Below are positions 10,025 through 33,634 of a stretch of DNA of 64,000 bases, piece after piece. Each line of letters starts with the position of its first letter. The stretch's first letter is position 1. A model generated the notes under the pieces. That model was not told where the DNA came from. It saw only the letters and a list, made by a program, of their open reading frames with translations, and searched no databases. The stretch spans positions 2,205 through 66,204 of the forward strand of contig JAXFOK010000015.1 of assembly GCA_034180415.1 (NCBI GenBank). Direction: 5' to 3'. Source of the DNA: Bdellovibrionota bacterium (GTDB taxonomy: Bacteria > Bdellovibrionota_C > UBA2361 > CAKMMH01). Position numbers and translations under genes: made by a program.

Positions 10025-10034
10025 AGGATAAATC

Positions 10035-12897: not shown

Positions 12898-14640
12898 ATG
12901 AGCAACTCTTTATTAGAACCTAACAAAGACATATTATCACGTATTGGTCATTACGTAGTAACAGATATTGGCGCAAAGAGAGAAACTAATCAAGATAATT
13001 TTATCGTCGTTTATGGTGAAAATTTCATATACTATGTCGTTTGTGATGGTATGGGCGGAACTGATGGCGGAGAAATCGCTTCCCAAATGACGGTTTCCTA
13101 TATAGATTCTGAATTAAAAGGTAAAAAAATAAGTGACATTGAAGATGTAAAAAAAGTAGTATATGAAGCTAATGAGAGAGTTTTCGAATATGGCATGGAA
13201 CATAAAGAAGTTCAAGGCCTAGGTACAACAATAACAAGTTTACTTGTGATGCCAAAAAGTTCATGGACTTTAAATGTTGGTGATTCAAGAGTTTATAAAA
13301 TCTTTGGCGATACGATAAGTCAAATTACAGAAGATGATACAGTTTTAAATGAGCTTATAAAATCTGGTGTTATATCTCAGGAAAAAGCAAAAAGTCATCC
13401 CATTTCAAATATGCTTACTAAGACTATCGGACAGGGAAAAAGTCTTGAGATTGAAACAACGAGACTCGGATTTTTAGATTATAGGGAAAGATTTATTTTA
13501 TGTTCAGATGGCTTATATAATATGGTTTCTGATAATGAAATCATGGAAATAATAAGCAATAATGATGTTAAAGAAGGTGTCAGAGGGTTAATAAAAAAGG
13601 CTAATGATAATGGTGGAATAGATAATATTACTGCGATGCTTGTAGGTGTATTTAACCAAAGAATATTATCTGATGAAGAAGAAAATAGCTTAATTGAACA
13701 ATCAAAAGCAAGGGTCGTAAAACCACAAGAGATATCAAATAATATAGATTACAATAAGCTTACTCAAAGGTTTGAGGAATTTAAAAATAGTGATGATGGC
13801 AAATATAAGAAATTATGGAATAAAACAGTTACTGACCACAATAACAATGAAAAAGTTGATGTGTCTAGTAGTGATTTAAGAGTATTAAGCCATTTAATTA
13901 TTTTAGTTGTATTGATAGTTTTAGGTTGTATTTTTGTAATTCCTAATAACAGTGTTAAACTTTCTAGGCAAATTCAAGAAGATAAATTTGAGGATAAAAT
14001 AGGCAATATTAAAGTTACAGAAGATGATTATAAGTTTAGGTTGAATTTTGAAGATAAAAAGTATGACGATAATGATAAGTTTATAGATTATTCTAAAAGA
14101 GAAATTATAGCTTATAATGAGATATTGGATATTGTTAAAAAAAGAGAAAGTTTATCAGAAGAAAAATTGTTAAGGCAAAAAAAAATATTATTAGATAGTA
14201 ATAAGGCTATAGAATCACAAATTAATAAATTGTCAGAAAAGATAAATGATATTAGAGAATATAATAACAAGAATTTATTAGATATTGCACGCGAGATATC
14301 AGAAAATGATGAAAATGTTAAAAAATTATCAGATGATTTTTTAAGTTTTTCATATGATATTCTTAATAATGATTTAAATCAAAATGATTACAATAAAATC
14401 AAAGAAGAAAAATTAAATAGGTTATATAAGCAAGTTGAGAGCTATTTTTATGATAAGATTTCTAAATATGAAATTCAAATAAAGTCTATGCAAGATAAAT
14501 TGCTTAGTAATCAATTTAATCTTTCAATTGTTGATTTAAAAATGCAATATGCAAAATTATTAGTTGATAATGAAGAAGAAAAATTAAAAGATTTTGAGGC
14601 AAAAATTAATACATTAAAGCAAAGAGTAAGCAAATCTTAA
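12898..14640 (+). CDS. PP2C-family Ser/Thr phosphatase with a C-terminal TM segment and a long coiled-coil domain
   Basis: N-terminal PPM motifs (YVVCDGMGGTDGGEIAS, ...CSDGLYNMVSDNE..., DNITAMLV). TM helix LSHLIILVVLIVLGCIFVI. The C-terminal about 230 aa is heptad-like. Confidence 0.8.
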   Translation: MSNSLLEPNKDILSRIGHYVVTDIGAKRETNQDNFIVVYGENFIYYVVCDGMGGTDGGEIASQMTVSYIDSELKGKKISDIEDVKKVVYEANERVFEYGMEHKEVQGLGTTITSLLVMPKSSWTLNVGDSRVYKIFGDTISQITEDDTVLNELIKSGVISQEKAKSHPISNMLTKTIGQGKSLEIETTRLGFLDYRERFILCSDGLYNMVSDNEIMEIISNNDVKEGVRGLIKKANDNGGIDNITAMLVGVFNQRILSDEEENSLIEQSKARVVKPQEISNNIDYNKLTQRFEEFKNSDDGKYKKLWNKTVTDHNNNEKVDVSSSDLRVLSHLIILVVLIVLGCIFVIPNNSVKLSRQIQEDKFEDKIGNIKVTEDDYKFRLNFEDKKYDDNDKFIDYSKREIIAYNEILDIVKKRESLSEEKLLRQKKILLDSNKAIESQINKLSEKINDIREYNNKNLLDIAREISENDENVKKLSDDFLSFSYDILNNDLNQNDYNKIKEEKLNRLYKQVESYFYDKISKYEIQIKSMQDKLLSNQFNLSIVDLKMQYAKLLVDNEEEKLKDFEAKINTLKQRVSKS

Positions 14641-14666
14641 GTAATGTGGTAGACTCACAATATTTC

Positions 14667-14870: not shown

Positions 14871-14888
14871 ATTTTAATTTTCTATTAA

Positions 14889-15995
14889 TTGGTTTTTATT
14901 ATGAAAAATTTTTATGATTATTTATGTTTATCATTAATTGCTATGGAATTAAAGCCTAGCGAAAGTAGGGAGTTTAGTTTGTTTTTATCAAATGAAAATA
15001 TTTATGAAAAGGAAAATAGTATAAATTTAATTTCAAAAAATTTTCCTAAAATAATTGAAAAGTTTCAGAATAAATTAGTTAAAGAAACTATAATGAATAA
15101 AATATCAAAATGGGAAAGCCAAGGGATAAAATTTTTATTATTAGGTACTAATGATTATCCAATATCATTAAAAAGTATTTTTAATCCGCCACTAGTTTTA
15201 TTTTATAAAGGAATATGGAAAAAGGATTATGATTATAATAACTCGGTTGCTATTGTCGGGTCTAGGAAGGCTTGTTTGATGCAATCTAAATTTGTTAGTG
15301 AGCTTGCAAAAAGTTTAAGTTATTCTAACATTTGTATAGTTAGTGGTTTAGCTCAAGGGATTGATGCGGCATCTCATATAGGAGCTCTTGGTAATCCTTC
15401 AAATTTATTTCCAACAATTGCAGTTTTAGGAAGCGGGGTAAATTATATTTATCCATCTGTGCATAAATATTTAGCACATAAAATAATTGAAGAAGGTGGG
15501 GTAATATTAAGTCATTTTTTACCCGACACTTCGCCACTTCCATATAATTTTTTAGATAGGAATAGAGTGATCTCAGGTCTTTCAAAAATTATAATTGTTG
15601 CACAAGCTGCTATGAAAAGTGGTGCGCTTTCTACAGCTAGATATGCTCTTGAACAGGGAAGGGATCTTTTAGCTGTTCTTGGCCCAGTGTATGACGAAGG
15701 ATTTGAAGGTTCAAATAATTTAATTACTCAAGGAGCAATCCCTATTGCTAATATAGATGATTTTTATAAGTTATATCCTGAGTATTTAAAAGATATGAAT
15801 CTTGATAATATTGAAAGTACCATTACTAATGAACCTGAAAAAACAGTTTATGAATATATAAAAAAACGAAAAAAAGTTACACGAAGTGAATTATATGAAA
15901 AATTTATAGATCTTGATTTACCATTAATAATTATTAATTTACAAGCTGAAAATTATATAGATTCACTGCCTGGTGAGGAATATGTGGTAAGGTGA
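14889..15995 (+). CDS. dprA: DNA processing protein DprA (Smf)
   Basis: Rossmann-like core with SGLAQGIDAASHIGAL and RNRVISGLS motifs. The C-terminal winged-helix extension is typical of DprA. An alternative start at 14901 (MKNFYD) is possible. Confidence 0.85.
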   Translation: MVFIMKNFYDYLCLSLIAMELKPSESREFSLFLSNENIYEKENSINLISKNFPKIIEKFQNKLVKETIMNKISKWESQGIKFLLLGTNDYPISLKSIFNPPLVLFYKGIWKKDYDYNNSVAIVGSRKACLMQSKFVSELAKSLSYSNICIVSGLAQGIDAASHIGALGNPSNLFPTIAVLGSGVNYIYPSVHKYLAHKIIEEGGVILSHFLPDTSPLPYNFLDRNRVISGLSKIIIVAQAAMKSGALSTARYALEQGRDLLAVLGPVYDEGFEGSNNLITQGAIPIANIDDFYKLYPEYLKDMNLDNIESTITNEPEKTVYEYIKKRKKVTRSELYEKFIDLDLPLIIINLQAENYIDSLPGEEYVVR

Positions 15996-16106: not shown

Positions 16107-16670
16107 ATGAGTGTAATAATATCTTATCAGAACAATTTATCGCTAAAAAATGAATATCTAGAAATTAGAGGTTTAGGTAGTAAAATAGGATTAGATAGAA
16201 CAGGAACTATAACAAATAGTAATGTTATTGAAGATTATTTTTCAATTTATTCAATAAATGAAGAATATGTACTAAATGTTAATGATGAAAATATATTACT
16301 TCCTAAATACTATAAAATGAATATCAATAATATGGATTTCTTTTTTTATACTATTTCACCTACATGTGAAAGTTTATCGTATGCTTGTTTTGATAAAGAT
16401 TTATCTCAAGTAAAAGAAAGAGATTTTATTACGTTAACTATTAATCATAATCTTAAAATATTAGATATAAAACTATATGAAGGGGTTGAGTATTATTTAG
16501 GCTCATCTAAAGTTTCTTCTATCTTTCTTGATGAAAATTTTGTTGCGCCTTATCATACTAAAATTAAGTATATAGATAAGAAAATACAAGTTATCGATGT
16601 TGCTGGAAGTCTTAAAAAAGAAGACGACTATTCTTACATATTAAATGATATTTTATTAAGATTTTCTTAG
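16107..16670 (+). CDS. Hypothetical protein with a possible C-terminal FHA-like domain
   Basis: The C-terminal segment ...LGSSKVSSIFLDENFVAPYHTKIKYIDKKIQVIDVAGS... weakly resembles the FHA core (G-R..D..L.D..VSR.HA.I......V.DLGS.NG). Weak call. Confidence 0.3.
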   Translation: MSVIISYQNNLSLKNEYLEIRGLGSKIGLDRTGTITNSNVIEDYFSIYSINEEYVLNVNDENILLPKYYKMNINNMDFFFYTISPTCESLSYACFDKDLSQVKERDFITLTINHNLKILDIKLYEGVEYYLGSSKVSSIFLDENFVAPYHTKIKYIDKKIQVIDVAGSLKKEDDYSYILNDILLRFS

Positions 16671-17235: not shown

Positions 17236-18501
17236 ATGGAACAAATAGCTGGAAAATATAATATTATTAGGTTGTTAGGTAAAGGAGCTACTGGGGAAGT
17301 GTACCTTGTAGAGCATAATGACCTAAAGTTAGAATATGCACTAAAACTTTTGTCAAAGGAAGTTTCAAATAACGATGTGGTCGTAGAAAGATTTATAAAA
17401 GAGGCAAGATTACTAGAAAAATTTTCCCATAAAAATACTGCAAGATTAAGAGATTTTGGAAAAAATGATGATGGCCGTTATTACATGACTACTGATTTTT
17501 GTAAGGGGATTACATTAAGCGAGCTTGTAAAGAAAAGAGGGGCTATTAATTATAATTTAGCTCTTAAAATCATGATTGATATTTTAGATGTTCTATCTTG
17601 CGCACATAAAGAAGGGGTAGTTCATAGGGATATAAAATCTGAAAATGTGATAGTAAATTTTAATGAAAATTTTGATGATTATGATGAGTTAAAAGTGCTT
17701 GATTTTGGTATAGCCAAAATGAAGCAAGATATTAAATTAAATGATACAAAGACCATAGATGGTTCTGCATTAGGGACTCCTCAATATATGGCTCCAGAAC
17801 AAGCAGCTGGTGAACCTAATCTTGATCATAGGATTGATATTTATTCGGCTGGAATTGTTTTATATGAGCTTCTTGCTGGAAAAGTTCCTTTTTTTGGGGA
17901 AACTATAGTTCAAACGCTTTTAATGCATTTAACTCAGCCGATTCCTCCTTTTGATGAATCATTAAACATTCCAGAAGATGTTTCTAATATTGTTAATAAA
18001 GCATTACAAAAAATCCCTAACAATAGATATCAAACTGCTGAAATGTTTATGCAAGATTGTAAAAAGATTTTAAATTGTGAAAACGTTGGGGAAGTTTCAG
18101 GTGATAATGGTGCGTATGTTATAAATGATGAAAAAAAAGAGAAAACGAAAATTCTATGTATTGATGATAATCAGATGATTTTAAATATAATTAGCCATAT
18201 TTTAACAAAAGAGGGATTTGAAGTATTTACTACAAATGATCCGAGTACACTTCATAGTTATTTATTCCAAGAAAGAATAGATTTGTTGATTTCAGATATA
18301 AATATGCCAAGTATTAACGGTAATGATTTGTGTAAAATGTTAAAACAAACCATGCCAAGCCTTAAAATAGCACTTTTTTCGAATATTCCAGAACAAGACT
18401 TAGAAGCGCTTGCAAAAGATGCGTCAGCAGATGCTTGGATTTCAAAAAACGAAAAGCCAAATGTGTGGCTTGAAGGGATATATAAACTACTAGGAAGATA
18501 A
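17236..18501 (+). CDS. Hanks-type Ser/Thr protein kinase fused to a C-terminal response-regulator receiver (REC) domain
   Basis: Kinase motifs are intact: GKGATGEV, ALKLL (VAIK-like Lys), HRDIKSENV, DFG, APE. The C-terminal about 120 aa is KILCIDDNQMILNIISHIL ... DLLISDINMP ... IALFSN (REC with phospho-acceptor Asp). Confidence 0.85.
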   Translation: MEQIAGKYNIIRLLGKGATGEVYLVEHNDLKLEYALKLLSKEVSNNDVVVERFIKEARLLEKFSHKNTARLRDFGKNDDGRYYMTTDFCKGITLSELVKKRGAINYNLALKIMIDILDVLSCAHKEGVVHRDIKSENVIVNFNENFDDYDELKVLDFGIAKMKQDIKLNDTKTIDGSALGTPQYMAPEQAAGEPNLDHRIDIYSAGIVLYELLAGKVPFFGETIVQTLLMHLTQPIPPFDESLNIPEDVSNIVNKALQKIPNNRYQTAEMFMQDCKKILNCENVGEVSGDNGAYVINDEKKEKTKILCIDDNQMILNIISHILTKEGFEVFTTNDPSTLHSYLFQERIDLLISDINMPSINGNDLCKMLKQTMPSLKIALFSNIPEQDLEALAKDASADAWISKNEKPNVWLEGIYKLLGR

Positions 18502-21003: not shown

Positions 21004-21388
21004 AAAATTGACGATGCATCCAAGATTGCGTCGTTATTCGAGAGAGATGCCGTCCTCGCTGTACTTAATAGTACAGCTGTGGGTGCATCCTCTCGAATGC
21101 CTAGCACTCTTGGCGCCTCGTCAATTTTATATATTAAGACGATGCATGTGATGATGCTACGTTCATTTTGAGGGATAAACGGTCCTTGCTGTACTTAATA
21201 GTACAGCTGTGGGAGCATCCTCCCGAATGCCTAGCACTCTTGGCGCCTCGTCAATTTTATATATTAAGACGATGCATGTGATGATGCTACGTTCATTTTG
21301 AGGGATAAACGGTCCTTGCTGTACTAATCGTACAGCTGTGGGAGCATCCTCTCGAATGCCTAGCACTCTTGGTGCCTCGTCAATTTTA
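21004..21388. repeat. Tandem array of three family-A palindromic elements (units about 121 nt)
   Basis: Copy 1 is 21004–21128. Copies 2 and 3 (21129–21249, 21250–21388) form a 121-nt direct repeat (atattaagacgatgcatgtgatgatgc...). Each has a central hairpin gctgtacttaatagtacagc and a 3' module gaatgcctagcactcttggcgcctcgtcaatttt. Termini are inverted complements. The ORF 21163..21408 is a repeat artefact. Confidence 0.8.
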
Positions 21389-21514
21389 TAAAATGGACCT
21401 TTTAACAACCCCTAAAAGGTAAAAGTTTTAATGGGTTGGTGCGTAATTAAAGTTTGCTGTGAAAAATTTCGATATTGAGTATAGGTTGGATTATATTTTT
21501 TTAAGTTTTAAGCT

Positions 21515-22762
21515 ATGAAATTATTAATTATTGATGTTTCAACAGAAGCTCAAGCAAAGTGTGCTAAAAAAATAGAGCCTTTTAATAGAAGTGATGTCGA
21601 AATGCTTGATTTAAAAATCAAGCTTGCAAACGAGCAAACTTATAAAGATATTCTAGAAGGAGCAGATGTTGCAATACTTGGTGCAGGGTTAGGTGAGTCT
21701 GCAATAGTGGTCGCAAGAGAGATTGCAAGCGTGTGCCCTTGGATGAATATTATAATGTTTGTTAAAGAGTCATTATACGGTGGAAGCTCTTTTAGAAGCG
21801 CACATTCAGTGGGCGTAAGAAAAGTTTTTTCTGATAACGCAAGTCCTCTTGATTTCTTGCAAGAACTTGTAGCAATTCACAGTGAATTTAGAAAAGAAGG
21901 TCGAGCCAGGGAAGGTATAGTTGTCGCGGTGAATCATGCCAAGGGAGGCGTCGGAGCAACTTCAATTTGCGCAGCTCTTGCAGAGGTTTGTGGAGTTTAT
22001 AATAAAAGGACACTTCTTTGGGATTTAGATGTCGAGACAAGAGATTTAAGTCGCTCTCTTACTGCAAGTGGAACAGAAGCCAAAGTAGTTTCATCGTGGG
22101 TTAATGGTTCAAGAGAAATTTCAAGAGAATCTTTAAAAGATGCACTTTTACCTATAAGTAATGAAGTTTCAATATTAATTCCACCAGATTGTATGGCTGA
22201 GTCTATGGATTTAGTGTGTCATACAGATAGTATAGCTCTTTGTAGTAGAATTTTAGAGCTTTCAAGAGTGCTTTTTGACGTAATTATTATTGATACTGGT
22301 GGAAGAATGGGACCTGCTACTGGAGCAGTAGTAAGAAATAGTGATAAAACTTTAATTGTTATTGATGATACGATTTTGGGACTAACAGCTGTCGATCTTT
22401 ATTTAAATTTTATTAAGAGTTTAGTTGGAACTCCAGATAGAATTAATTTTTTAATAAATCAATATACTGGAAATCTTCTTACAAAAAATCAGATTGAAGC
22501 TGAGTTAGAACCTATTCATAGGTTAGGACATGAGGTTTGGAGCTTAGATCCAGTGTATATGGACCCAAAAGCTAGCCTTTGGTCAGCAAGTGGTAAGACG
22601 CTTTATAGTTTAGGTAATAGAAATACAAGAGTTGCTCTAGAAAAGATGGCTGTAATTCTAGGACTTACTATTCAACATGGCGTAGTAAAGAGAGAAAACC
22701 AAGCAAATAATAACCAAAAAGAAAAAGGACATAAGTTTTTGAATTTTTTTAATAAAAAATAA
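21515..22762 (+). CDS. tadZ: TadZ/CpaE-type pilus-assembly ATPase (ParA/MinD-like, N-terminal degenerate receiver domain)
   Basis: N-terminal MKLLIIDVSTEAQAK REC-like fold. Deviant Walker A AVNHAKGGVGATSICAALA. 415 aa. Located at the head of the flp operon. Confidence 0.8.
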   Translation: MKLLIIDVSTEAQAKCAKKIEPFNRSDVEMLDLKIKLANEQTYKDILEGADVAILGAGLGESAIVVAREIASVCPWMNIIMFVKESLYGGSSFRSAHSVGVRKVFSDNASPLDFLQELVAIHSEFRKEGRAREGIVVAVNHAKGGVGATSICAALAEVCGVYNKRTLLWDLDVETRDLSRSLTASGTEAKVVSSWVNGSREISRESLKDALLPISNEVSILIPPDCMAESMDLVCHTDSIALCSRILELSRVLFDVIIIDTGGRMGPATGAVVRNSDKTLIVIDDTILGLTAVDLYLNFIKSLVGTPDRINFLINQYTGNLLTKNQIEAELEPIHRLGHEVWSLDPVYMDPKASLWSASGKTLYSLGNRNTRVALEKMAVILGLTIQHGVVKRENQANNNQKEKGHKFLNFFNKK

Positions 22763-22935: not shown

Positions 22936-23109
22936 ATGTTAAGAATTTTTAGTAAGAAAGAAAAAGGTGCTTCACTCGTTGAGTACGCGTTACTAGTTGC
23001 TTTAATTGCATTAGGATCAATGGCTGCTATGAGATTACTATCAAATAATATTTCAGGTGCATTCTCTCAATCAGGTAGTATATTACAAGATGTAAGTAAA
23101 GCAGGTTAA
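22936..23109 (+). CDS. flp: Flp-family pilin precursor (57 aa), absent from the supplied ORF track
   Basis: MLRIFSKKEKGASLVEYALLVALIALGSMAAMRLLSNNISGAFSQSGSILQDVSKAG carries the Flp signature (G/ASLVEYALLVALIAL: prepilin-peptidase site G|A, conserved E and Y). Strong RBS aaggagaaagtaaaATG. Sits directly upstream of cpaB/tadA/tadB/tadC. Confidence 0.8.
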   Translation: MLRIFSKKEKGASLVEYALLVALIALGSMAAMRLLSNNISGAFSQSGSILQDVSKAG

Positions 23110-23127: not shown

Positions 23128-24039
23128 ATGAAGCCACTTAGTTCTCAACCAGATAGTAATTCTAAGCTAATTTTTTTAGTTGCAATTGTTGTAATGCTTT
23201 TGCTAGGTGGCTTTCTTTTAATTTTTTTCGGATTTAGTAATAAATCTAATAATACCGGACAAAATTTTGATAATCCACAAAGTGAATTGAATGATAATAT
23301 AAATACTAGAGCAGAAAATAATGCAAATGTTGAAAGAACAGTTCAGGTTTTAGTTACAATAAGAGATATTAAAAATGGCGAAAAATTAGATCCTACAATG
23401 TTTAGGAAAGAAACAAGGCCAGAAAATTTTGTTAAACCTGATGATTATAGAGATTTTTCACAGATAGATGGTTTTTTTGCAAAATCAGATATTGGATTTA
23501 GAGAAACTATAGACCCAAATAAAGTATCAAGAAAAAAACCAGTAAATACTATAACGGCTAATATTCCTGAAGGTTACAGAGCTGTTACAATTAATGTTGA
23601 TGTGACAAGTAGTGTAGAAGGTTGGGCAAGAGCAGGAGCGTTTGTTGATGTTGTATGGAATTCAGTGATAAATGGAAAACCAGCTGCTACTGTAATTATT
23701 CAAAATGCAAAAATTTTATCAGCAGAAAGGCAAATTGAGGCTAATCCACAAGAGGGACAGGCTCCTGTTCCTAGTACTGTAACACTTCTTGTGCTTGCGG
23801 ATGATGCAACAAAAATTCATCTTGCAGAAACCACTGGTAAGTTAAGTTTACAGTTAAGAGGGGACGATGCTGAAAAAGGATTTGGGGCAAGAACTTCCCT
23901 TACAATAGATGATTTACTTGATAAGAATAATGGTAAAAAAGATAATAAAAAGTATGATGCTATTGTAAAAATTAAAGGTAAAAATGGTAAAATGGAAAGG
24001 TGGGGATTAAAGGATGGAAGTCTTGTTCTAATTGAGTAA
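23128..24039 (+). CDS. cpaB: CpaB/RcpC-family Flp pilus assembly protein
   Basis: N-terminal TM anchor, then a SAF-like region (VQVLVTIRDIKNGEKLDPTMFRKETRPENFVKPD) and a beta-rich C-terminus, at the canonical position between flp and tadA. Confidence 0.65.
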   Translation: MKPLSSQPDSNSKLIFLVAIVVMLLLGGFLLIFFGFSNKSNNTGQNFDNPQSELNDNINTRAENNANVERTVQVLVTIRDIKNGEKLDPTMFRKETRPENFVKPDDYRDFSQIDGFFAKSDIGFRETIDPNKVSRKKPVNTITANIPEGYRAVTINVDVTSSVEGWARAGAFVDVVWNSVINGKPAATVIIQNAKILSAERQIEANPQEGQAPVPSTVTLLVLADDATKIHLAETTGKLSLQLRGDDAEKGFGARTSLTIDDLLDKNNGKKDNKKYDAIVKIKGKNGKMERWGLKDGSLVLIE

Positions 24040-24057: not shown

Positions 24058-25515
24058 ATGGCAAGAAATGAGACTAATGATGATTTAACAAGTTTGTTTT
24101 CTACAAGAAATAAGATGATAAATGAATCATCGCAAGGGGAGAATAATTCGTTAATGCCATCTGTATCTGGTGGAACTTCTTCTCGAGGTATTGCAAAAAC
24201 TAATAAAAATGATTCAAAAGATTATTCTCAAGGAAATGATAGTTTTAAAAAGGAACTTTCAGAGACAGGTAATAGGGTATTAAAAGAAGCAAGAAGTGAG
24301 CTAGGGGAACTTTTAAACAAACAAAAAGAATCTAACAAAGCTATTGATGAGTCAACGATTATTAAAGCTGTAGAAAAGGTTATTGAAAAAAATGAAGTTT
24401 CACTTCCTGACTTAGAAAAGGCTACTATTATTATTCATCTTCAAAAGGATTTGCTTGGTTGGGGAGTTTTACAGCCTCTTATAGATAATCCAGAAGTTAC
24501 AGATATTCACGTTTATGATTATGCTACAGTCGTGCTTCAACGTGGTAAAGTTAGTGAAAGAACTCAGTATCGATGGCCATCCAAACAAGTTTATATAGCA
24601 TTTATTGATAGGCTTCTTTTAAGACTTGGAAAATCACTATCTACTCAGCAACACACGGTTGATGCTGCGCTTCCAAATGGAATAAGAATTTGTGCAATTC
24701 ACGAGAGTGTTTGTGGTTCAAGAGGCCCACTTTTAAGTATTCGTGTACCAAGAGTTAGTAAAGTATCACTTGAAAGTATCGTATCATACCAAATGGCACC
24801 ACCATTAATTGTTAGGTATTTAGCAGCACTTGTAAAATGTGGTATTTGTACATTTATGATAGCAGGAGAAACTGGTACTGGTAAAACGACTATTATGAAA
24901 TGTCTTGCAACTCAATTTGGTGAAACTGAGTCAATCGTAGCTGTTGAAGATACTCCAGAACTTAATTTACAACATGAGTATTTTAGATCCCTTGTATCTC
25001 GTCCACCAAACACCGAGGGAAAAGGTGAAGTTACACTTCAAGAGCATATAAAAACTACTCTTCGTATGACACCAAACAGGGTACTACTTGGTGAAATGAG
25101 AACTCCATTTGCTGCAGAAGCTTTCTTAGAAGGTGTCCAAACAGGTCACGTTGGAATGAGTACAATTCACGCTCGTAATGCTAGAGAAACTCTTACAAGA
25201 CTTGAAGGACTTTTAGGACGTGCTCAACAGTCAGTTTCTACTGAGATTTTAAGGCAGCAAATCGCGCTTGCTGTAGATGTTGTTGTTTGGCTTTTTAGAG
25301 AAAAAGAAACGGGAAAACCAAGAGTAGGGGAAATAATTGAAGTTGGACACTGTGTTGAAGGTGTAATTCAAACGCGTCCTATGTTTTCAATTTTAAAAAC
25401 AGGAAAGGATCCTCTTTGGAGAGTCGACTCTTGGGCAAGTTTCTTTGATGAAGAGCTAGCAGAATACGGAATATTTCTAGGAGATGCGCCTCCTGAGATT
25501 AGTTTAAAAGACTAG
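24058..25515 (+). CDS. tadA: TadA/CpaF pilus-assembly ATPase (T2SS/T4SS secretion ATPase superfamily)
   Basis: Walker A IAGETGTGKTTIMKCL, Asp box, Walker B and His box (GHVGMSTIHA). The N-terminal about 140-aa extension is unusually long. Locally higher GC is typical of a conserved ATPase. Confidence 0.9.
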   Translation: MARNETNDDLTSLFSTRNKMINESSQGENNSLMPSVSGGTSSRGIAKTNKNDSKDYSQGNDSFKKELSETGNRVLKEARSELGELLNKQKESNKAIDESTIIKAVEKVIEKNEVSLPDLEKATIIIHLQKDLLGWGVLQPLIDNPEVTDIHVYDYATVVLQRGKVSERTQYRWPSKQVYIAFIDRLLLRLGKSLSTQQHTVDAALPNGIRICAIHESVCGSRGPLLSIRVPRVSKVSLESIVSYQMAPPLIVRYLAALVKCGICTFMIAGETGTGKTTIMKCLATQFGETESIVAVEDTPELNLQHEYFRSLVSRPPNTEGKGEVTLQEHIKTTLRMTPNRVLLGEMRTPFAAEAFLEGVQTGHVGMSTIHARNARETLTRLEGLLGRAQQSVSTEILRQQIALAVDVVVWLFREKETGKPRVGEIIEVGHCVEGVIQTRPMFSILKTGKDPLWRVDSWASFFDEELAEYGIFLGDAPPEISLKD

Positions 25516-25555: not shown

Positions 25556-26485
25556 GTGTCTATTGAGGTTATACTAGGAATAATATTAATTCTTTTGTCA
25601 ATAATTGTCGCTTGTGTGCTATTATTGTCTAATAATAATTCTAGTCATTCAAATTTTAAAAGTTTAAGTTCTCAAAAGAATAACAATGATAATAATTTAG
25701 AAGATATTGATTTTGTAAAAGTAGAAAGAACTAGCAATGGAAAATATACTTTAAGACAAAAAATGATATATGCAAATTGGAAATTTCCTCCAATCCTATT
25801 TAATATGTTTAGGTTTTCATTAGCAATTTTATGCTTTATGATAGCAAAGACCTATTTTAAGATTTTTTTATCTACTATTATTGCCTTTTTAGCTTTTAAC
25901 TTTGCAAATGGTTTTTTAAACAGGGCAATAAAGAAAAGATTCGATGCGTTTGATAAAGACTATCCAACATTTTTACAAACAATAGTAAGTTTATTAAAAT
26001 CTGGTATGAATGTACTTACTGCTATAGATTCAGCATCTGAGGGGCTAGAAGATACGTCACTTTTAAAAAGTGAAGTTAAGGTCATGATGGAAAGATTAAG
26101 AGCAGGAGTCGGTGAAGAAAAAGCTATTGGAAATTTTGGAGCAACAATTGATCATCCAGAAATTGAATTATTTATCCAAACTATAATTTTAGGAAAAAGC
26201 CTAGGTGGTTCTTTATCTATGACCCTTGATAGGCTTGCAGAACAAGTAAGAAAAAGACAATATTTTAGAGGCTCAGCAGTTGCTTCTATAGCACAGCAAA
26301 AAGGATCTTTATGGGTTATTTTATATTTATTATCAGGTTTAATTATTACAATTGGATGTAAAGCTCCAGATTTATTTGCTGTTGGATTGCATAGCAATGG
26401 TGGTAGAATGGTCTTGGAAATAGGAATATGTATTATATTGCTTGGAATATTTTGGATTAAGAAAGTTATAAATATTAAGGTATAA
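25556..26485 (+). CDS. tadB: TadB (GspF-like inner-membrane platform protein)
   Basis: T2SSF domain (PTFLQTIVSLLKSGMNVLTAIDSASEGL ... IQTIILGKSLGGSLSMTLDRLAEQVRKR) with flanking TM helices. GTG start. Confidence 0.75.
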   Translation: MSIEVILGIILILLSIIVACVLLLSNNNSSHSNFKSLSSQKNNNDNNLEDIDFVKVERTSNGKYTLRQKMIYANWKFPPILFNMFRFSLAILCFMIAKTYFKIFLSTIIAFLAFNFANGFLNRAIKKRFDAFDKDYPTFLQTIVSLLKSGMNVLTAIDSASEGLEDTSLLKSEVKVMMERLRAGVGEEKAIGNFGATIDHPEIELFIQTIILGKSLGGSLSMTLDRLAEQVRKRQYFRGSAVASIAQQKGSLWVILYLLSGLIITIGCKAPDLFAVGLHSNGGRMVLEIGICIILLGIFWIKKVINIKV

Positions 26486-27346
26486 ATGAATTTATTAATT
26501 GGTTTTATCATAATTTTTGCGATTATAACTTTTGTGTTATTTGTAGTAATTGTTTATTCGAATAAGAAAAATCAAGAAAAATCTACTCCTAAATATTTAT
26601 CAAATTCTTCTAAAAAAAATGTAGCAAAAAATAATACTAAATCAAAGAATGGTAAAGATGAAAGTTTAGAATCACTTTTTTATAGAGCTGGAATCTTTGA
26701 TGAAAAAGACAAGGCGGCTTTTAATAGGAAAAAAGTGCTTTATCCATTAATTTTTGGAATTATAGGAGCCATATTAGGGATTTATTATGGAGGATATTCA
26801 CTTTTTCTAATGCCTACCTTAGGTGCATATCTTGGTTTAAAATTTCCAGGAAGAATACTAAATAAAAGAATAAAAGAAAGAGATGAAGATATCTTATACT
26901 ATTTACCACTTGTAATAGAGCAATTAGTTGTAGGAGTAAGTAGCGCACTTGATATAGGCCCATGTATAGCTTATGTCGTCGATATGGCAGAAAAAAGAGG
27001 AACACATAATCCTGTCACAATTCTTTTAAAACAAGTACAAATTTTAGTTAGATTTGGTGCATCATTAGATGACGCACTTGTAGATGTTGGTAAGCAATCA
27101 GGTCATAATGAACTTAAAAATAGCTTTTTACAACTTTCACAGGTTACAAAGCATGGTGGTGAAATTACGAAACAATTACAAGATCTTGGAACAACAGTTA
27201 CAAGACAACGTGAGATTATAATTGATGAACGTATAAAAAGATTGGAATTAAAAGCAACAGGCCCTGTATTTTTAGTATTTGCCGGCCATATGGCTATATT
27301 ATTAGCATTCTTATTTATGGGGCTAGCAAAATCTCTTAGTAATTAA
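26486..27346 (+). CDS. tadC: TadC (second GspF-like platform protein)
   Basis: T2SSF-like region (ILYYLPLVIEQLVVGVSSALDIGPCIAYVVDMAEK ... QVQILVRFGASLDDALVDVG) plus TM helices. The start abuts the tadB stop. Confidence 0.75.
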   Translation: MNLLIGFIIIFAIITFVLFVVIVYSNKKNQEKSTPKYLSNSSKKNVAKNNTKSKNGKDESLESLFYRAGIFDEKDKAAFNRKKVLYPLIFGIIGAILGIYYGGYSLFLMPTLGAYLGLKFPGRILNKRIKERDEDILYYLPLVIEQLVVGVSSALDIGPCIAYVVDMAEKRGTHNPVTILLKQVQILVRFGASLDDALVDVGKQSGHNELKNSFLQLSQVTKHGGEITKQLQDLGTTVTRQREIIIDERIKRLELKATGPVFLVFAGHMAILLAFLFMGLAKSLSN

Positions 27347-27411: not shown

Positions 27412-29496
27412 ATGAAGAAATTTCAGATTCAAGGGCAAGATTTTGTATTAGCACTTTTTGTGCTATCAATTACCGCAATGCTTGTAATACCACTTCCTAC
27501 AAGTATGCTTGATTTCTTGCTTGTTATTAACATTTCATTTTCATTGCTTCTTTTACTTGCTGGATTATATATGCCAAATGCGTTGGCATTAATTTCTTTT
27601 CCTTCACTTCTTTTATTAACAACACTTTTTAGATTAGGTTTAAATGTAGCATCTACAAGATTAATTTTGAGCCAAGGAGATGCAGGCCATGTTATTGAGG
27701 CTTTCGGTACATTCTTAATTAGAGGTGAAGTAACAATTGGTGTTATTATATTTTTAATAATAACAATTGTAAATTTTATAGTTATCGCAAAAGGTGCAAA
27801 TCGTGTATCAGAGATTACAGCAAGATTTTCACTAGAATCGCTTCCTGGAAAACAAATGGCAATAGACTCTGATCTTCGTTCAGGAGTCATTGATGTTAAT
27901 CAAGCTAGAAAAAGAAGAGATGACTTAAGAAAAGAATCACAGCTTTATGCTGCTATGGACGGAGCGATGAAATTTATTCAAGGTGATGCAATTGCGGGCT
28001 TCTTTATAACACTTACAAATATTATAGGTGGTTTGTATATAAGTTTAAGAGGTGGAATGAGCCTTGGTGAAGCTGTAGAAACTTATACAACGTTAACTGT
28101 AGGTGATGGATTAGTTAGTCAAATTCCTGCGCTTTTAATATCAATATGCGCTGGTATCGTTGTTACAAGAGTTAGCTCAGGTGAAAATTCAACACTTGGT
28201 AAAGAACTTCAAGGACAACTTCTTAGTAGTCCAAGTATTATAATTTTTACAGGTTCTGTACTATTTTTCTTTGCTATACTCCCAGGACTTCCTGCATTAC
28301 AATTTATAAGTGTTGGTACGTTCTTAATAAGTGTTGGTTTATATTTAAATTACAAAAAAAGAGAAAGTACAAGAAATGTGGAGTTTCTTCCAATATCAGT
28401 TCTAAAGGCAAATCGAGAATTGTTAGAAAGCGATAATAGTAAAATACAAAATGTATTTCAAATATTTATAGATAAAGAGTTTGGAAGTTACGTAAATGAT
28501 AACTCACTTTCTATTTTACAGAAATGTAATGAGTATAAGGAAAATTTTAAAAAAATGACAGGTTTCGAGTTTCCTCAATTTAAATTTGTCATAAAAAATG
28601 AAATATTAAAAAATGCATTTAAAGTTTATAAATTGAACACGCTTGTCGTAGAATCTAGTTTTAAAGATGACATGATATATTTAAATATTAATAAATCTGA
28701 GCTTCCAATTTTGGGATTAAAAGATTTTGTTGAGGATTATCATCCTATATATGGAAATAAACTTTATGGCGTTATTAAAAATACATATACAAGTTTGTTA
28801 TGTGAAGAAACGGATTTAATGTATTATGATAAAATCGATTGGATTTTATTAAATATTGCAAGTTTTTGCATTGATAATCCAATAGAGTTTTTTAGCATTT
28901 CGGATATTACAAAAGTGTTGAAAGATATAGAAAAAGATTATCCAGAGATAATAAAAGATTTGTTTTCTATACCCAAAGTTAATAGTGCAAAAATTTTCAA
29001 AGTATATGCTGAGCTCATGAGACAAGAGATATTTTATATATCACATAAAGAAATTTTAGAAGGTATTATTTCATATTTTAATGGTTATAATGTATCTGAC
29101 GAATCTGATTTTGATGTATTTAATATTGTAAGTTATATAAGGCAAAGTAAAAAATTACATGTTACGTATAATTCAATTTATAAAGATAAAAGAATAAAAC
29201 TTTGTAGTATTTCAGATGAACTTCAAGAAACTTTTGAAGAAATGATACCACAAGTTTATGAGGGAAGTGTTAATTTAGATTTAAAAGATTTTGGGGTAAT
29301 TAAGAATAATATTGTGGCACTTCAAAGACCATATTTAGAAAAAGGTGTAACAAGCTTTTCGATAGTTAGTTCTAAAGAGTTAATACCTGTTATATATAGT
29401 GTACTTAAGATTTTTCAATTAAAGATTAATATAGTAGAATTTGATGAGTTAACATCTGATTTAAAAATAGAACATATTGGAATTTGGAGAAAATGA
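27412..29496 (+). CDS. FlhA/SctV-family (FHIPEP) type-III export-gate protein paralog, encoded at the 3' end of the tad operon
   Basis: The N-terminal 330 aa align almost residue-by-residue with the FlhA membrane domain (LLLTTLFRLGLNVASTRLIL, ITARFSLESLPGKQMAIDSDL, MDGAMKFIQGDAIAG, TVGDGLVSQIPALLISICAGIVVTRV). The C-terminal cytoplasmic domain is divergent but retains an FlhA-like stretch (KENFKKMTGFEFPQFKFVIKN, cf. RKKFAQDMGFLPPVVHIRDN). Confidence 0.85.
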   Translation: MKKFQIQGQDFVLALFVLSITAMLVIPLPTSMLDFLLVINISFSLLLLLAGLYMPNALALISFPSLLLLTTLFRLGLNVASTRLILSQGDAGHVIEAFGTFLIRGEVTIGVIIFLIITIVNFIVIAKGANRVSEITARFSLESLPGKQMAIDSDLRSGVIDVNQARKRRDDLRKESQLYAAMDGAMKFIQGDAIAGFFITLTNIIGGLYISLRGGMSLGEAVETYTTLTVGDGLVSQIPALLISICAGIVVTRVSSGENSTLGKELQGQLLSSPSIIIFTGSVLFFFAILPGLPALQFISVGTFLISVGLYLNYKKRESTRNVEFLPISVLKANRELLESDNSKIQNVFQIFIDKEFGSYVNDNSLSILQKCNEYKENFKKMTGFEFPQFKFVIKNEILKNAFKVYKLNTLVVESSFKDDMIYLNINKSELPILGLKDFVEDYHPIYGNKLYGVIKNTYTSLLCEETDLMYYDKIDWILLNIASFCIDNPIEFFSISDITKVLKDIEKDYPEIIKDLFSIPKVNSAKIFKVYAELMRQEIFYISHKEILEGIISYFNGYNVSDESDFDVFNIVSYIRQSKKLHVTYNSIYKDKRIKLCSISDELQETFEEMIPQVYEGSVNLDLKDFGVIKNNIVALQRPYLEKGVTSFSIVSSKELIPVIYSVLKIFQLKINIVEFDELTSDLKIEHIGIWRK

Positions 29497-29497
29497 T

Positions 29498-31828
29498 ATG
29501 GCTGATAATAATAATAGTTTAATAATTATTAATTCTATAAATGAGCTTTATAAAATAGAGTCTAGTATAGCTATTACAAATAGTTCTGAAAGTTTTAAAG
29601 CTGTCGAGATTAGTACAGGAAGAAGTGTGATTTTATCTGTATTAAAAAGAAAATTTAACGTTTATTTAGATCCTAAAGAAATCTCACAATTTTTAGATAG
29701 ACTTAATAAGATTCAAACTTTTGGAAGTTCGCTTTCTTCATTAATTAGTTTTGGTGTTGATAAGGATGGAGTAGGGTATTCGGTATGTGCTATTTCCTCG
29801 GTTAACTCGGTCTTATCTGGAACTATCAACTATGGTGAGGCAACTAGACGTTTAGAAGCTGTTTTGCAGATTCTTATGAAAATGCATAAAGCAGATATAG
29901 CTTGTGGTGATATATGTAATGATTCATTTTTTATAAGTAGAGAAGGGAATATCGGATTATTAGCTATAAATGGGACTTACCCTAGAAAAAGTGATGAAAA
30001 CTTAACAAACAGTCATTATGCACTTCCTAATATTCATGAACCAATATCAATATTAAGTGATATCTATAGATTAGGAATACTTAGCTATAAATTATTTTTA
30101 AATGATTATGATGCATATCCTTTTGATGAAAATAATAATTATATTCAATTAATTTCTTTAAATTGTGATATACCAAGTTATATCGATTTAGCAATAAAAA
30201 CATGTTTAAGTGTAAATCCAGAGGGAAGATTTAGTAATGCTGAAGAGCTTTTTAATTATATTAAATCAGAGCGAGAAAAAGATTCATCAAACGATAACTC
30301 CTTAACTTCTATAAATCCTACAAATGATGAGTTTTCAAAAGTTAAGGTGCTTAATGAAATAGCACTTAGAGAAGAAGTAAATAGTAAAAATAAAAAGATG
30401 AAGGCTACATTAGGCATTGTGGGAGTAGTCTTAATTGTATTTTTTGTGATTATCTTTTTAAGCCAAAATCGAGGAAGAGGTAATAATGGTGTATTAAATA
30501 TGAGAAGAAACACCCAAACAAGTGAAAGCCAGTTAAGAGAGCAAGAAGAAAAATTAAAAAGAATATACGATAGTGAAGATCCGCTAATGTATGTTGCAAT
30601 GGTTAATATGGCAAATAAAGCCTTAAATCCTCAACAAAGAAAATTAGTAGAAAAATATATTGTAAAAAGATTTAAAAATTATCAATATGATAATCTTGTA
30701 GTTATATTAGAAGATTTTTTATCAAGTATAGTTGGTAATGAGATTCCAGAGTTTTATGAAAAATTATTACTTGCTCTTGATAAAAAATATCCGATTGAGA
30801 AAAGGGGAGTTATTTTTAAAGAGCTTTCTAAAAACAATAAAAGTTTAATTGTCGATTTAGCAATAGCTTTATCGTTAGATGATAATAATGAAAAAAGTTA
30901 TAGAGATGTTTTTGTAAGTTTTCTTGATGATGAGTTTAAAAAAGATATTCAGAGGAGATCTTTTGATGCACTATTAATTGCAGAATACTTCTCATGGCAA
31001 AAATATGAGAGCTTACTAAAAGAAAAACTTACAAAATTATCTGATGAAGATTTAGTATGGATTGTTCCAATTTTTGTTAAAAGAAATGATAAATACCTTG
31101 AAAATGTTATCGATTTAATTACAAAAAGACATTTACTTGATGATGTACAGTCAAGCTTTTTATCGCTTATTAATGAATTAAATCCTCCAAAAGAAATTAA
31201 GGATATCTTATTAAAAGCTAGTACATCTCAGATTACACAAAATGACATTCAAGTAGTTTCAAATTGGATTAATATTAATAAAGAAAAAATATTATATGTG
31301 ATGATATTAGCGTTAAAAACAGATATTTCGCTTAAAAGAGAAATATTTGATATATTTTCAGTAACTAGAGTTCAAGATGAGTTAATTAATAAATATGTCA
31401 AATTTGTTAAAGAAAATTTATGGAATAATAGAGGTGAGCTTACTACTTTGATACCATATTTATTAAAATCAAAAGATTATTCTGAGGATAAACTATTAAA
31501 TGCTATTAAATATAGTATAAAGAAATTAAGTAGTTCGGATAAAAGTAAAATATTAACAGAACTTGTTGAAATCGCTGATGATAAAATTAAAACAATTATT
31601 TTTGAAAATTTCTATGAAGATTTAGGAGTAGGGGTCTTAGTAAATTATCTTTCTTATGATGATAAAAATATTAAGAAACTTGCACTAAAAGGATTAAAGG
31701 AATCAGGTATTGATGACATCATTATCTCAAATCTAATTATTGAAAAGTATGATGAAGAAGATGATGACGAAATAAGAAATATGTATAAATCAAATTTCTG
31801 GTTTATAAGAAAAAGAGAATTAGAATAA
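29498..31828 (+). CDS. Membrane pseudokinase: N-terminal degenerate protein-kinase-like domain, TM helix, C-terminal helical-repeat (HEAT/ARM-like) domain
   Basis: The kinase fold is recognisable (YKIESSIAI..., HKADIACGDICNDSFFI in place of HRDLKxxN, ING in place of DFG, ...SDIYRLGILSYKLF) but G-loop, HRD and DFG are degenerate. TM segment ATLGIVGVVLIVFFVIIFL. The start sits 1 nt after the FHIPEP stop (tgatATGg). The track start 29477 is in-frame upstream, but the coupled ATG at 29498 is preferred. Confidence 0.5.
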   Translation: MADNNNSLIIINSINELYKIESSIAITNSSESFKAVEISTGRSVILSVLKRKFNVYLDPKEISQFLDRLNKIQTFGSSLSSLISFGVDKDGVGYSVCAISSVNSVLSGTINYGEATRRLEAVLQILMKMHKADIACGDICNDSFFISREGNIGLLAINGTYPRKSDENLTNSHYALPNIHEPISILSDIYRLGILSYKLFLNDYDAYPFDENNNYIQLISLNCDIPSYIDLAIKTCLSVNPEGRFSNAEELFNYIKSEREKDSSNDNSLTSINPTNDEFSKVKVLNEIALREEVNSKNKKMKATLGIVGVVLIVFFVIIFLSQNRGRGNNGVLNMRRNTQTSESQLREQEEKLKRIYDSEDPLMYVAMVNMANKALNPQQRKLVEKYIVKRFKNYQYDNLVVILEDFLSSIVGNEIPEFYEKLLLALDKKYPIEKRGVIFKELSKNNKSLIVDLAIALSLDDNNEKSYRDVFVSFLDDEFKKDIQRRSFDALLIAEYFSWQKYESLLKEKLTKLSDEDLVWIVPIFVKRNDKYLENVIDLITKRHLLDDVQSSFLSLINELNPPKEIKDILLKASTSQITQNDIQVVSNWININKEKILYVMILALKTDISLKREIFDIFSVTRVQDELINKYVKFVKENLWNNRGELTTLIPYLLKSKDYSEDKLLNAIKYSIKKLSSSDKSKILTELVEIADDKIKTIIFENFYEDLGVGVLVNYLSYDDKNIKKLALKGLKESGIDDIIISNLIIEKYDEEDDDEIRNMYKSNFWFIRKRELE

Positions 31829-32675: not shown

Positions 32676-33634
32676 ACAAGATTCCTTTTATTTAATAAAG
32701 TTAATTACAATAATCAAATTTTACACACACATTCTCTTTGCTAGCTAGTTAACTAAAAAGTCAACTTATAGTCTGCTAGCACTGATTCACTAGCGTTAAT
32801 GATATGTATAAAGTTAAGAATATACAAAAATATTAAATTATGAAAAATTAAAACTCCAATTTATAGAAAAATGCTTTGTAATCTTAAAACAACCTAAATA
32901 AACATAAGCTCCCTAAATAAATACGAGCTTTAAGCGTAAGACTAACTTAAAGGCTATTAAAAGACTACACGCTAAGCCTTAAAAACTCATAATAAAATAT
33001 TTTTACAACATTTAAAAACGATACTAATTTTAACGACTAAATAAGTCCTAAATTTTTTCAATCGTAAAAGAATATTTTGATATTCTACTAAAAAAAAAAT
33101 CTTACTCAATATAAAAAGGATTAATAAAGCAAAAAATCCTTTTTGAAAGATTCTTTAAGTAAAATATAAATGAAACCTATATAGAAAAATCGCCTTAAAT
33201 TTTGAAATAGAAACTTCAAAATAGCGAATCCACACAAGCTTAATAATACTAAACTTAAAAGTAACCCAAATTTAGCTTGTTTGTTTAGCTTGTTTGTTTA
33301 GTTTGTTTTTAAGCTTTATCTTTAAGCTTATATTGTGTTATATCTTATATAAGCTTGTCTGAATTTGCTACTTATTCTACTAAAAAATTTAACTTCTAAC
33401 CTTAAAAAACTATATTCTTTCAAACCGATTGCACACGATTATATGAAAAAGAAATTCAAACTTCAAGAAAAAAATACATTAGCGATAAAAAAAATAAAAA
33501 AATAGAATAATGTTTAAAAATTACTTGACTTAGATAAAAAATTGGGTCTTAAATTTTGAAAAATATCAAGGCTTTAACTTAATTTTTACGTAAAAACTTC
33601 ATGTATTTTATAGTGTGAATTATTACTAATATTT

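Follow-up and report, generated by a model that had tools for sequence, protein, structure and literature searches.

What does a kinase-like membrane protein do directly behind a type III-type export gate, at the end of an operon for a Tad pilus? The question is raised by a 64,000-nt stretch of contig JAXFOK010000015.1 from a Bdellovibrionota bacterium (assembly GCA_034180415.1), hereafter the window, in which a gene for a 776-amino-acid protein that we label PsK follows a gene of the FHIPEP (SctV/FlhA) superfamily and a row of Tad genes (Table 1). An initial annotation had read PsK as a catalytically dead membrane pseudokinase with a helical-repeat C-terminal domain, tightly coupled to the FHIPEP gene. 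As set out below, PsK represents a new, well-populated family of membrane pseudokinases, and what makes it most interesting is that, in the Tad operons of uncultured Bdellovibrionota, it is always paired with a type III-type gate.

The limits of the gene are set by its relatives. All homologues share the start methionine encoded by the ATG at 29498, and the gene is therefore taken to run from this codon to 31828; a mechanical open reading frame (ORF) call that began at a TTG (29477-31828) was rejected because the homologues begin at the ATG. A single base separates this ATG from the TGA stop codon of FHIPEP (29494-29496), and a GGAG lies 8-10 nt 5' of it, within the 3' end of FHIPEP. The two genes are 0-3 nt apart in several relatives and 30-300 nt apart in others, and PsK is often translationally coupled to FHIPEP among them. 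The tight coupling proposed at the outset is thus borne out by the one-base junction in the window together with the adjacency seen across loci. The next downstream gene, for a YacG-like zinc-finger protein, is convergent to PsK, and the co-directional Tad-FHIPEP row therefore ends with PsK. A promoter scan of the operon performed no better than on shuffled sequences, and a terminator scan returned nothing at the operon end.

Adjacency was followed through loci whose PsK family members range in identity from 57% to 22%, collected by exact-protein look-up and by a scan of species-representative genomes. In tblastn searches with the window proteins, FHIPEP lay immediately upstream of PsK in all 26 distinct loci with usable upstream sequence. 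Approached from the other side, two FHIPEP homologues on long contigs, chosen without reference to PsK, were both followed by a protein of 792-793 amino acids, one of which carries Pkinase and HEAT_2 matches. This brings the total to 28 distinct loci plus the window, and in the loci examined PsK always comes directly after FHIPEP. One locus, L030, from an uncultured Bdellovibrionales metagenome-assembled genome (MAG), was reported by tblastn as lacking FHIPEP; that reading was discarded when a 233-amino-acid ORF ending 3 nt before PsK proved to be the FHIPEP C-terminus (Pfam 1.3e-19), a fragment that tblastn had missed. Almost every locus has Tad genes ahead of FHIPEP, usually in the order TadZ, Flp, CpaB/RcpC, CpaF/TadA, TadB, TadC that is also found in the window; at L010 the FHIPEP-PsK pair stands without Tad genes in the available sequence.

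The family itself is large and uniform in architecture. An exhaustive profile search with a threshold of E<=1e-30 recovered 158 cluster representatives; almost all are 750-850 amino acids long and match over both domains. A word-indexed protein search returned seven close relatives of PsK (45-99% identity); run with a 69-sequence alignment, the same kind of search returned ordinary kinases and not the distant family members. The broad family alignment contains no conserved stretch of 7-10 columns. All 21 full-length genome matches of PsK are MAGs, one closed 2.28-Mb genome among them, variously labelled Bdellovibrionota, Bdellovibrionales, Oligoflexia, 'Deltaproteobacteria', 'Pseudomonadota' or simply 'bacterium', and no cultured organism occurs among these PsK-carrying matches.

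The N-terminal domain of PsK has the fold of the Hanks-type (eukaryotic-like) protein kinases. As a single sequence PsK gave no Pfam match at E<=1, and its phmmer match to PknA in the PDB was not significant (E 0.5), a result that taken by itself would speak against the initial annotation. It is overturned by profile and structural evidence. Among 52 diverse family members 39 individually match Pfam Pkinase, a profile of the seven close relatives matches StkP (2.6e-5) and PknA (1.3e-4) in the PDB, and nearly all of the 60 PDB matches listed for the family profile are kinases, the pseudokinase Tribbles among them. Aligned with hhalign against a profile of 24 genuine Hanks kinases, the profile of 143 N-terminal domains scored a probability of 99.96% (E 3e-39). 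An AlphaFold2 (AF2) model of residues 1-275 (predicted local distance difference test, pLDDT, 77; predicted template-modelling score, pTM, 0.79) gave more than 1900 Foldseek matches at E<=0.001, with kinases accounting for all 50 of the matches listed, PknB 1o6y at E 2.5e-11, and template-modelling scores of 0.63-0.68 to PknB and PknA.

The residues that would make this fold a working kinase were mapped column by column through HMMER and hhalign alignments and counted in those 145 of the 158 representatives' sequences that are full-length. The glycine-rich loop, GxGxxG in canonical kinases, reads S-T-R-x-A-D/E in the family and ITNSSES in PsK. The beta3 lysine of VAIK is replaced by tryptophan in 115 of 145 sequences and by serine in PsK and its clade, and the alphaC glutamate gives way to leucine, methionine or isoleucine (leucine in PsK). 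HRD becomes (C/L)-G-D (CGD in PsK), the catalytic-loop lysine cysteine or serine (cysteine in PsK), the catalytic asparagine serine (128) or threonine (16; PsK has serine), and the aspartate of DFG glycine, serine or alanine, PsK having alanine within A-I-N-G. The two PsK stretches on which the initial annotation had based its call, HKADIACGD and ING, are residues 130-138 and 157-159. The loss of the glycine loop and of DFG thus extends across the 145 sequences and is not a peculiarity of PsK. The catalytic loop had likewise been called degenerate, which holds for its lysine and asparagine; it is not wholly so, because the HRD aspartate, D138, is retained in 134 of the 145.

Two of the three residues by which pseudokinases are operationally defined (VAIK lysine, HRD aspartate, DFG aspartate) are therefore missing family-wide, the first and the last, and of all the elements expected in an active Ser/Thr kinase D138 alone is left. 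Most members also keep the APE motif, where the query clade, that of PsK, has LPN; an invariant alphaF aspartate (D188) and the subdomain XI arginine (R244) are likewise retained. At least 85% conservation is reached at H130, G137, D138, S143, F144, D188, R244, W590, E754 and W768, and the residues of the N-terminal domain whose conservation is specific to the family (G86, D88, G91, H130, S143, F144 and W228) indicate selection on something other than phosphotransfer. Because the motif losses are family-wide and the beta3 tryptophan is of the pocket-filling kind, the domain is classified as a pseudokinase, one that is unlikely to bind nucleotide; the ATP- and Mg-binding and phosphate-orienting residues were lost before the family diversified.

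Behind the kinase-fold domain lies one hydrophobic transmembrane (TM) helix, as first proposed, and 68 of 69 aligned family members have a helix in the corresponding place. The hydrophobic core averages 21.7 residues, and there is no N-terminal signal sequence. Across 140 members the 15-residue flanks carry on average 3.67 lysines and arginines on the N-terminal side and 1.96 on the C-terminal side, the N-terminal side being the richer in 103 sequences and the C-terminal side in 13. Because of this family-wide bias, the positive-inside rule predicts an N-in/C-out orientation, with the pseudokinase in the cytoplasm and the C-terminal domain in the periplasm.

The C-terminal domain is predicted to be a HEAT-like solenoid without a close solved relative. 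Its AF2 model, built on a 32-sequence alignment, is all-alpha and confident (about 28 helices over some 430 residues, pLDDT 93.3), and 35 of the 52 family members match Pfam HEAT_2 (best E 2e-11), both in keeping with the helical repeats first read from the sequence, while PsK itself has no HEAT_2 match. Foldseek against the PDB returned generic ARM/HEAT/SLR solenoids only, among them designed armadillo proteins, importin-alpha and CAND1 (best E 0.011, template-modelling score about 0.2). The best-conserved features of the solenoid are an SxDP motif at its start and a C-terminal block, DKxVRxxAI...NDxxALKxI...YExExDPEVRxxYxxxFWxI.

The partner gene is itself divergent. The window FHIPEP protein scores 521 bits against the NCBIfam model for SctV (cut-off 692) and 472 bits against that for FlhA (cut-off 772), so that it falls below both and appears to be a superfamily member belonging to neither curated equivalog. 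It is part of a large clade of roughly 40%-identical proteins from the same MAG groups, whose annotation is inconsistent. A stand-alone 113-amino-acid SpoA-domain protein of FliN/SctQ type, encoded on the opposite strand, passes the TIGR02480 (fliN) threshold (93.7 bits, cut-off 84) and could be left over from a type III-like apparatus or a scattered piece of one; its gene adjoins that of a kinase-receiver protein, 4.5 kb upstream of the Tad operon. At L030 a type III core lies directly downstream of PsK, in the order double-FHA protein, second FHA protein, SctJ, SctQ-like protein, SctR, probable SctS/SctT, SctU and TPR protein, the double-FHA protein resembling the cytoplasmic domain of SctD (Yop-YscD_cpl 7e-14). 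A second locus, L012, has the complete Tad-FHIPEP-PsK row, and the gene that follows PsK there encodes a protein 61% identical to the L030 double-FHA protein, after which the contig ends. In at least one lineage, then, the genes for Tad and for a type III core are clustered together, and PsK stands between SctV and the SctD-like gene. Genes for a needle, translocon, secretin or SctN ATPase were not seen in the available sequence of these loci.

In distant loci the row is extended upstream by a phosphorylation module, giving the order PP2C, FHA protein, active kinase, TadZ, Flp, RcpC, CpaF, TadB, TadC, FHIPEP, PsK; the module start was seen at L093, L009 and L012. The upstream protein carries a C-terminal FHA domain (E 3.5e-5), and in the active Hanks kinase a disordered linker connects the kinase domain to a C-terminal tail-anchor, its only membrane element, so that it has no extracytoplasmic domain. 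The window retains counterparts of both enzymes upstream of its Tad genes: a PP2C with one TM helix, and an intact Hanks-type Ser/Thr kinase that carries a receiver-domain fusion and in which VAxK, HRD and DFG are readable. Upstream of the kinase gene is an ORF of 187 amino acids without a family match, sitting where distant loci have the FHA protein, the C-terminal part of which reads, by eye only, like a degenerate FHA domain.

At the other end of the row, a gene for a secreted or lipoprotein-like thioredoxin-fold (AhpC-TSA/Redoxin) protein adjoins PsK in four distant loci, on the same strand and abutting or overlapping the PsK stop in three of them and convergent in L011. The L093 product has a hydrophobic N-terminus ending in cysteine. 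This neighbour is absent from the query clade; a disulfide link between PsK and the thioredoxin-fold protein was considered and dropped, the solenoid having one half-conserved cysteine and the query clade no such neighbour.

Co-evolution was examined in 22 loci with complete CpaF, TadB, TadC, FHIPEP and PsK, by partial Mantel tests on pairwise Kimura distances with CpaF as the control, standing in for common ancestry. Covariation of PsK is seen with FHIPEP (r 0.40, p 0.016), TadB (r 0.55, p 0.0005) and TadC (r 0.61, p 0.0005), whereas FHIPEP covaries with neither TadB (r 0.11, p 0.26) nor TadC (r 0.06, p 0.35); the positive control, TadB with TadC, gave r 0.82 (p 0.0005). Without the query clade the corresponding values are r 0.39 (p 0.058) for FHIPEP, r 0.39 (p 0.06) for TadB and r 0.52 (p 0.0065) for TadC, r 0.10 (p 0.28) and r 0.09 (p 0.31) for FHIPEP with TadB and TadC, and r 0.67 (p 0.0005) for the control. 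The co-evolution with FHIPEP, proposed for testing at the outset, is thus present over all 22 loci and slips below significance once the query clade is removed. The pattern, a modest effect seen by a weak method, is consistent with PsK bridging FHIPEP and the Tad platform. PsK evolves faster than any other gene in the operon, with a mean distance of 1.53 where FHIPEP has 0.91 and CpaF 0.37.

Pseudokinase partners of secretion machines had been called poorly described in bacteria, and here the initial annotation needs correcting: EssB/YukC of the type VIIb system of Bacillota, with a cytoplasmic pseudokinase, a TM helix and an extracellular domain, is a well-studied, non-catalytic assembly hub (PMC9600267, PMC12599244). 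Like PsK, for which the topology is predicted, it has an N-terminal degraded kinase fold that has lost its glycine loop, one TM helix, an extracytoplasmic C-terminal domain and a gene in a secretion operon. It differs in host and partner, Bacillota and EssC as opposed to diderm Bdellovibrionota and FHIPEP/Tad, and PsK has a 430-amino-acid HEAT-like solenoid. Membership of the EssB/YukC family was rejected, with no Pfam YukC match in the 52 members at E<=0.01; the top PDB sequence and Foldseek matches listed include PknB, PknA and StkP and no EssB/YukC.

Two other bacterial pseudokinases invite comparison. The MviN (MurJ) pseudokinase of Mycobacterium tuberculosis, of the ActPs3 family, cannot bind ATP, its pocket being taken up by bulky aromatic residues, and phosphorylation by the active Hanks kinase PknB lets it recruit an FHA-domain protein (PMC12599244). 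It shares with PsK the tether to the membrane, and PsK loci also co-encode an active Hanks kinase, a PP2C phosphatase and an FHA protein; the MviN domain, however, is fused to a 14-TM flippase and regulates cell-wall synthesis, whereas PsK is a separate single-pass protein paired with FHIPEP. GLW, a proteobacterial family among the seven catalogued families of bacterial pseudokinases, is named for the motif that replaces its HRD (PMC12599244), and resembles the PsK family in its beta3 leucine/tryptophan (PsK consensus V-L-L-W) and C-terminal TM segment. The published GLW definition sets PsK apart, since its HRD columns read (C/L)-G-D with the aspartate retained, and membership was therefore rejected.

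On the machine side, SctD (YscD/PrgH), the inner-membrane ring protein of injectisomes, offers a parallel in layout. It is bitopic, as PsK is predicted to be: a single TM helix joins a phosphopeptide-module-like domain in the cytoplasm to a domain in the periplasm, and its gene lies among those of the type III core. At L030 and L012, PsK stands between SctV and an FHA/YscD-cytoplasmic-domain protein that apparently lacks a periplasmic domain. The two are not homologous, SctD being built of FHA and ring-building motifs and not of kinase and HEAT folds, and a functional analogy between them is a conjecture. At the level of the whole system, a parallel comes from Myxococcus xanthus, where the Tad-like Kil system and a needleless T3SS* (a type III secretion system without needle or secretin) co-localise and depend on each other in contact-dependent prey killing (PMC12075869, PMC10849154). 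A 2024 review restricts the co-occurrence of T3SS* and Tad to the Cystobacterineae (PMC10849154). In Myxococcus the two systems are encoded apart from each other, and these two papers name no pseudokinase partner, whereas in PsK loci the gene sets are physically linked, with FHIPEP alone, or in some lineages a whole type III core, within the Tad operon. We found no description of a Tad-FHIPEP-pseudokinase module in a literature search with incomplete coverage of subscription journals, and a recent preprint on the B. bacteriovorus Tad system mentions neither FlhA nor a Ser/Thr kinase near the tad genes.

We lean, with little better than even confidence, towards PsK as a non-catalytic, single-pass inner-membrane adaptor dedicated to the divergent FHIPEP gate at the end of the Tad operon. 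Its cytoplasmic pseudokinase would offer a docking surface for the cytoplasmic ring of FHIPEP and/or for the FHA protein, the active Hanks kinase and the PP2C phosphatase, so that PsK would act as a phospho-regulated scaffold in the manner of MviN-PknB-FhaA or EssB/YukC, while the periplasmic solenoid would contact the Tad platform or a periplasmic ring. PsK would in this way couple the type III-type gate to the Tad machine, and threonine phosphorylation would switch the coupling. Several observations weigh against such an adaptor. The topology assignment rests on the positive-inside rule, and the flanks of PsK itself are uninformative, with four lysines or arginines on each side. The mirror-tree signal is modest, weaker without the query clade, and could be inflated by rate heterogeneity. 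The window locus has no recognisable FHA protein and no tail-anchored kinase, carrying instead the kinase-receiver fusion 3 kb upstream of tadZ, and the 64-kb window holds no type III-related gene beyond FHIPEP and the FliN/SctQ-type gene. Finally, the strong conservation of D138, the equivalent of the catalytic base, is not explained by a purely scaffolding role. The main rival, which we consider possible without favouring it, makes PsK chiefly a signalling receptor, the sensory arm of a kinase that has no sensor of its own: the solenoid would detect, for instance, the prey envelope, peptidoglycan or the state of the pilus, the pseudokinase would allosterically activate the co-encoded Hanks kinase by dimerising with it, and kinase and PP2C together would set the phosphorylation of FHA-binding targets. 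This would suit the tail-anchored kinases of distant loci, the conservation of PP2C and FHA protein just upstream, the large predicted periplasmic domain that PsK alone has among the components, and the back-to-back dimers known for PknB and the MviN pseudokinase (PMC12599244). It sits less well with PsK always lying beside FHIPEP and six or seven genes from the kinase, with the L010 pair, which has neither kinase nor Tad genes in the available sequence, and with the query clade, whose kinase is a soluble fusion to a receiver.

The retained D138 could also mark an atypical active enzyme, with relocated catalytic residues or with another chemistry of the kind seen in SelO (AMPylation) and SidJ (glutamylation). 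Kinase-fold proteins with unexpected chemistry do exist (PMC12599244), and D138 stands beside the invariant-like G137, S143 and F144; a basic residue, R/K50, is conserved three positions past the lost beta3 lysine, although a lysine or arginine there is common in ordinary kinases (VAVKVLK in PknA). With five nucleotide- or metal-binding elements gone family-wide (glycine loop, beta3 lysine, alphaC glutamate, catalytic asparagine and DFG aspartate), and the beta3 lysine replaced in 115 of 145 sequences by a bulky tryptophan, a kind of change that occupies the ATP pocket of MviN and of the GLW family (PMC12599244), this is clearly unlikely. An inverted or monotopic arrangement, in which a cytoplasmic solenoid clamps the FHIPEP ring and the hydrophobic segment is a mere anchor, strikes us as improbable. 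HEAT/ARM solenoids are typically cytoplasmic protein binders, FHIPEP is mostly cytoplasmic, and the balanced flanks of PsK would permit it; the charge bias of the family runs the other way, however, the hydrophobic core is too short for a hairpin, there is no signal sequence to export a 300-residue N-terminal domain, and the gene that overlaps the PsK stop in most of the distant loci encodes a secreted or lipoprotein-like thioredoxin-fold protein. That PsK is simply a decaying kinase gene whose place next to FHIPEP means nothing is hardly credible. Its rapid evolution and the failure of PsK to match any Pfam model fit decay, but intact ORFs of constant length and architecture in 158 clusters, invariant non-catalytic residues, confident structure models of both domains, and an adjacency kept at 22% identity and in differing surroundings all argue for a gene under selection.

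A bolder extension of the adaptor reading, which we regard as rather doubtful, is that in a whole clade of uncultured Bdellovibrionota a Tad machine and a needleless type III export apparatus have become a single, genetically linked nanomachine with PsK as its lineage-specific linker. PsK would then replace the membrane and periplasmic part of SctD, and would be joined through phosphothreonine to a tail-anchored FHA protein resembling the cytoplasmic part of SctD. By the same tentative reasoning, the kinase would write the phosphothreonine and the PP2C phosphatase erase it, making assembly of the gate beside the pilus platform a phospho-switch.

Table 1. Coordinates of the features discussed, in the window unless a related locus is named.
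Feature	Position	Strand	Basis and remarks
PsK gene	29498..31828	+	776-aa membrane pseudokinase/HEAT-solenoid protein; ORF list, start set by homologue N-termini
Kinase-fold domain, residues 14-263	29537..30286	+	predicted cytoplasmic; without ATP- and Mg-binding residues; AF2, Foldseek, hhalign, motif counts
Degenerate catalytic loop and DFG-equivalent A-I-N-G	29885..29974	+	HKADIACGDICNDS; HRD to CGD, Lys to C, Asn to S; translation
Single TM helix, residues 303-322	30404..30463	+	ATLGIVGVVLIVFFVIIFLS; hydropathy 3.1
HEAT/ARM-like all-alpha solenoid, residues ~345-776, ~28 helices	30530..31825	+	predicted periplasmic; AF2, Pfam HEAT_2; C-terminal block in short form YExExDxE..Y...FW
FHIPEP stop/PsK start junction	29485..29500	+	GGAGAAAATGAtATG, read from sequence
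FHIPEP (SctV/FlhA-type export-gate) gene	27412..29496	+	Pfam FHIPEP E 3e-156, positions 1-656 of 657
TadZ/CpaE	21515-22762	+	Pfam
Flp pilin	22936-23109	+	Pfam
CpaB/RcpC	23128-24039	+	Pfam
CpaF/TadA ATPase	24058-25515	+	Pfam
TadB	25556-26485	+	Pfam
TadC	26486-27346	+	Pfam
Hanks-type Ser/Thr kinase fused to receiver domain	17236..18501	+	intact; Pfam Pkinase 9e-47, Response_reg 7e-19
PP2C-type Ser/Thr phosphatase	12898..14640	+	Pfam PP2C_2 2e-12; one TM helix, residues 322-356
FliN/SctQ-type SpoA-domain protein, stand-alone, 113 aa	16709..17050	-	Pfam FliMN_C 4e-23
187-aa ORF upstream of the kinase-receiver gene	16107-16670		no family match
769-aa secreted repeat protein	18693-21002		NF033662 E 7.6e-43
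Tandem repeat, three copies of a ~130-nt unit	21037-21400		66-nt cores start at 21066, 21196, 21325
ORF-poor interval, ~960 nt	32676-33634		no ORF >=50 aa
ORFs without family match (several)	45411-50656		flank
395-aa Fic/DOC-domain protein	51276-52463		housekeeping neighbourhood
L030, type III core downstream of PsK	3207-10637
L012, double-FHA gene after PsK	12492-13568
L093, PP2C-FHA-kinase module start	1-3585
L009, PP2C-FHA-kinase module start	1-1617
L012, PP2C-FHA-kinase module start	353-1744
L093, thioredoxin-fold gene	14481-15095		same strand as PsK, abutting or overlapping its stop
L008, thioredoxin-fold gene	12360-12893		same strand as PsK, abutting or overlapping its stop
L009, thioredoxin-fold gene	12331-12795		same strand as PsK, abutting or overlapping its stop
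L011, thioredoxin-fold gene	9075-9554		convergent to PsK

The window as a whole is AT-rich chromosomal DNA (about 30% GC), with housekeeping genes flanking the locus on both sides (MutS, RuvB, SufS-like, Ffh, TrmD, ClpB and PFOR), and contains no tRNA gene and no Rfam family at the gathering threshold. The core set of a Tad/Flp (type IVc) system is all present. The RcpA/CpaC secretin, the prepilin peptidase TadV and the minor pilins TadE/F were not found among ORFs of at least 100 amino acids in the 64-kb window; because Tad genes are dispersed in Bdellovibrio (bioRxiv 10.64898/2026.07.08.737194), this need not mean that they are missing from the genome.

Some further features surround the operon. 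Between the kinase-receiver gene and tadZ lies the gene for a 769-amino-acid secreted protein with at least seven acidic double-disulfide repeats, which has a 68%-identical counterpart in L001, the closest related locus. The intergenic space between this gene and tadZ holds the tandem repeat, whose copies are 93-97% identical and have no Rfam match; copies 1 and 2 each contain a small hairpin with a T-run behind it that scored as resembling a terminator. Downstream of the operon, the ORF-poor interval separates two minus-strand genes and has no Rfam or tRNA match, and a gap of similar size is present in L001.

Bacterial pseudokinases are numerous but have hardly been studied, and only for EssB/YukC is it clear that a pseudokinase serves as a subunit of a secretion machine. 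The PsK family would be a second and independent case, in diderms, with an unusually well-defined partnership with FHIPEP, and around it a type III-type gate and a kinase/phosphatase/FHA module are built into the operon of a Tad pilus. This Tad-FHIPEP-PsK arrangement points to an undescribed pilus/secretion hybrid machine. If the merged machine proved true, it would embody in one structure what Kil and T3SS* achieve by cooperation in Myxococcus. The PsK loci extend the pairing of Tad and T3SS* beyond one myxobacterial suborder to another predatory phylum, in the form of a single gene cluster, which makes the cooperation of a pilus with a needleless type III apparatus directly testable.

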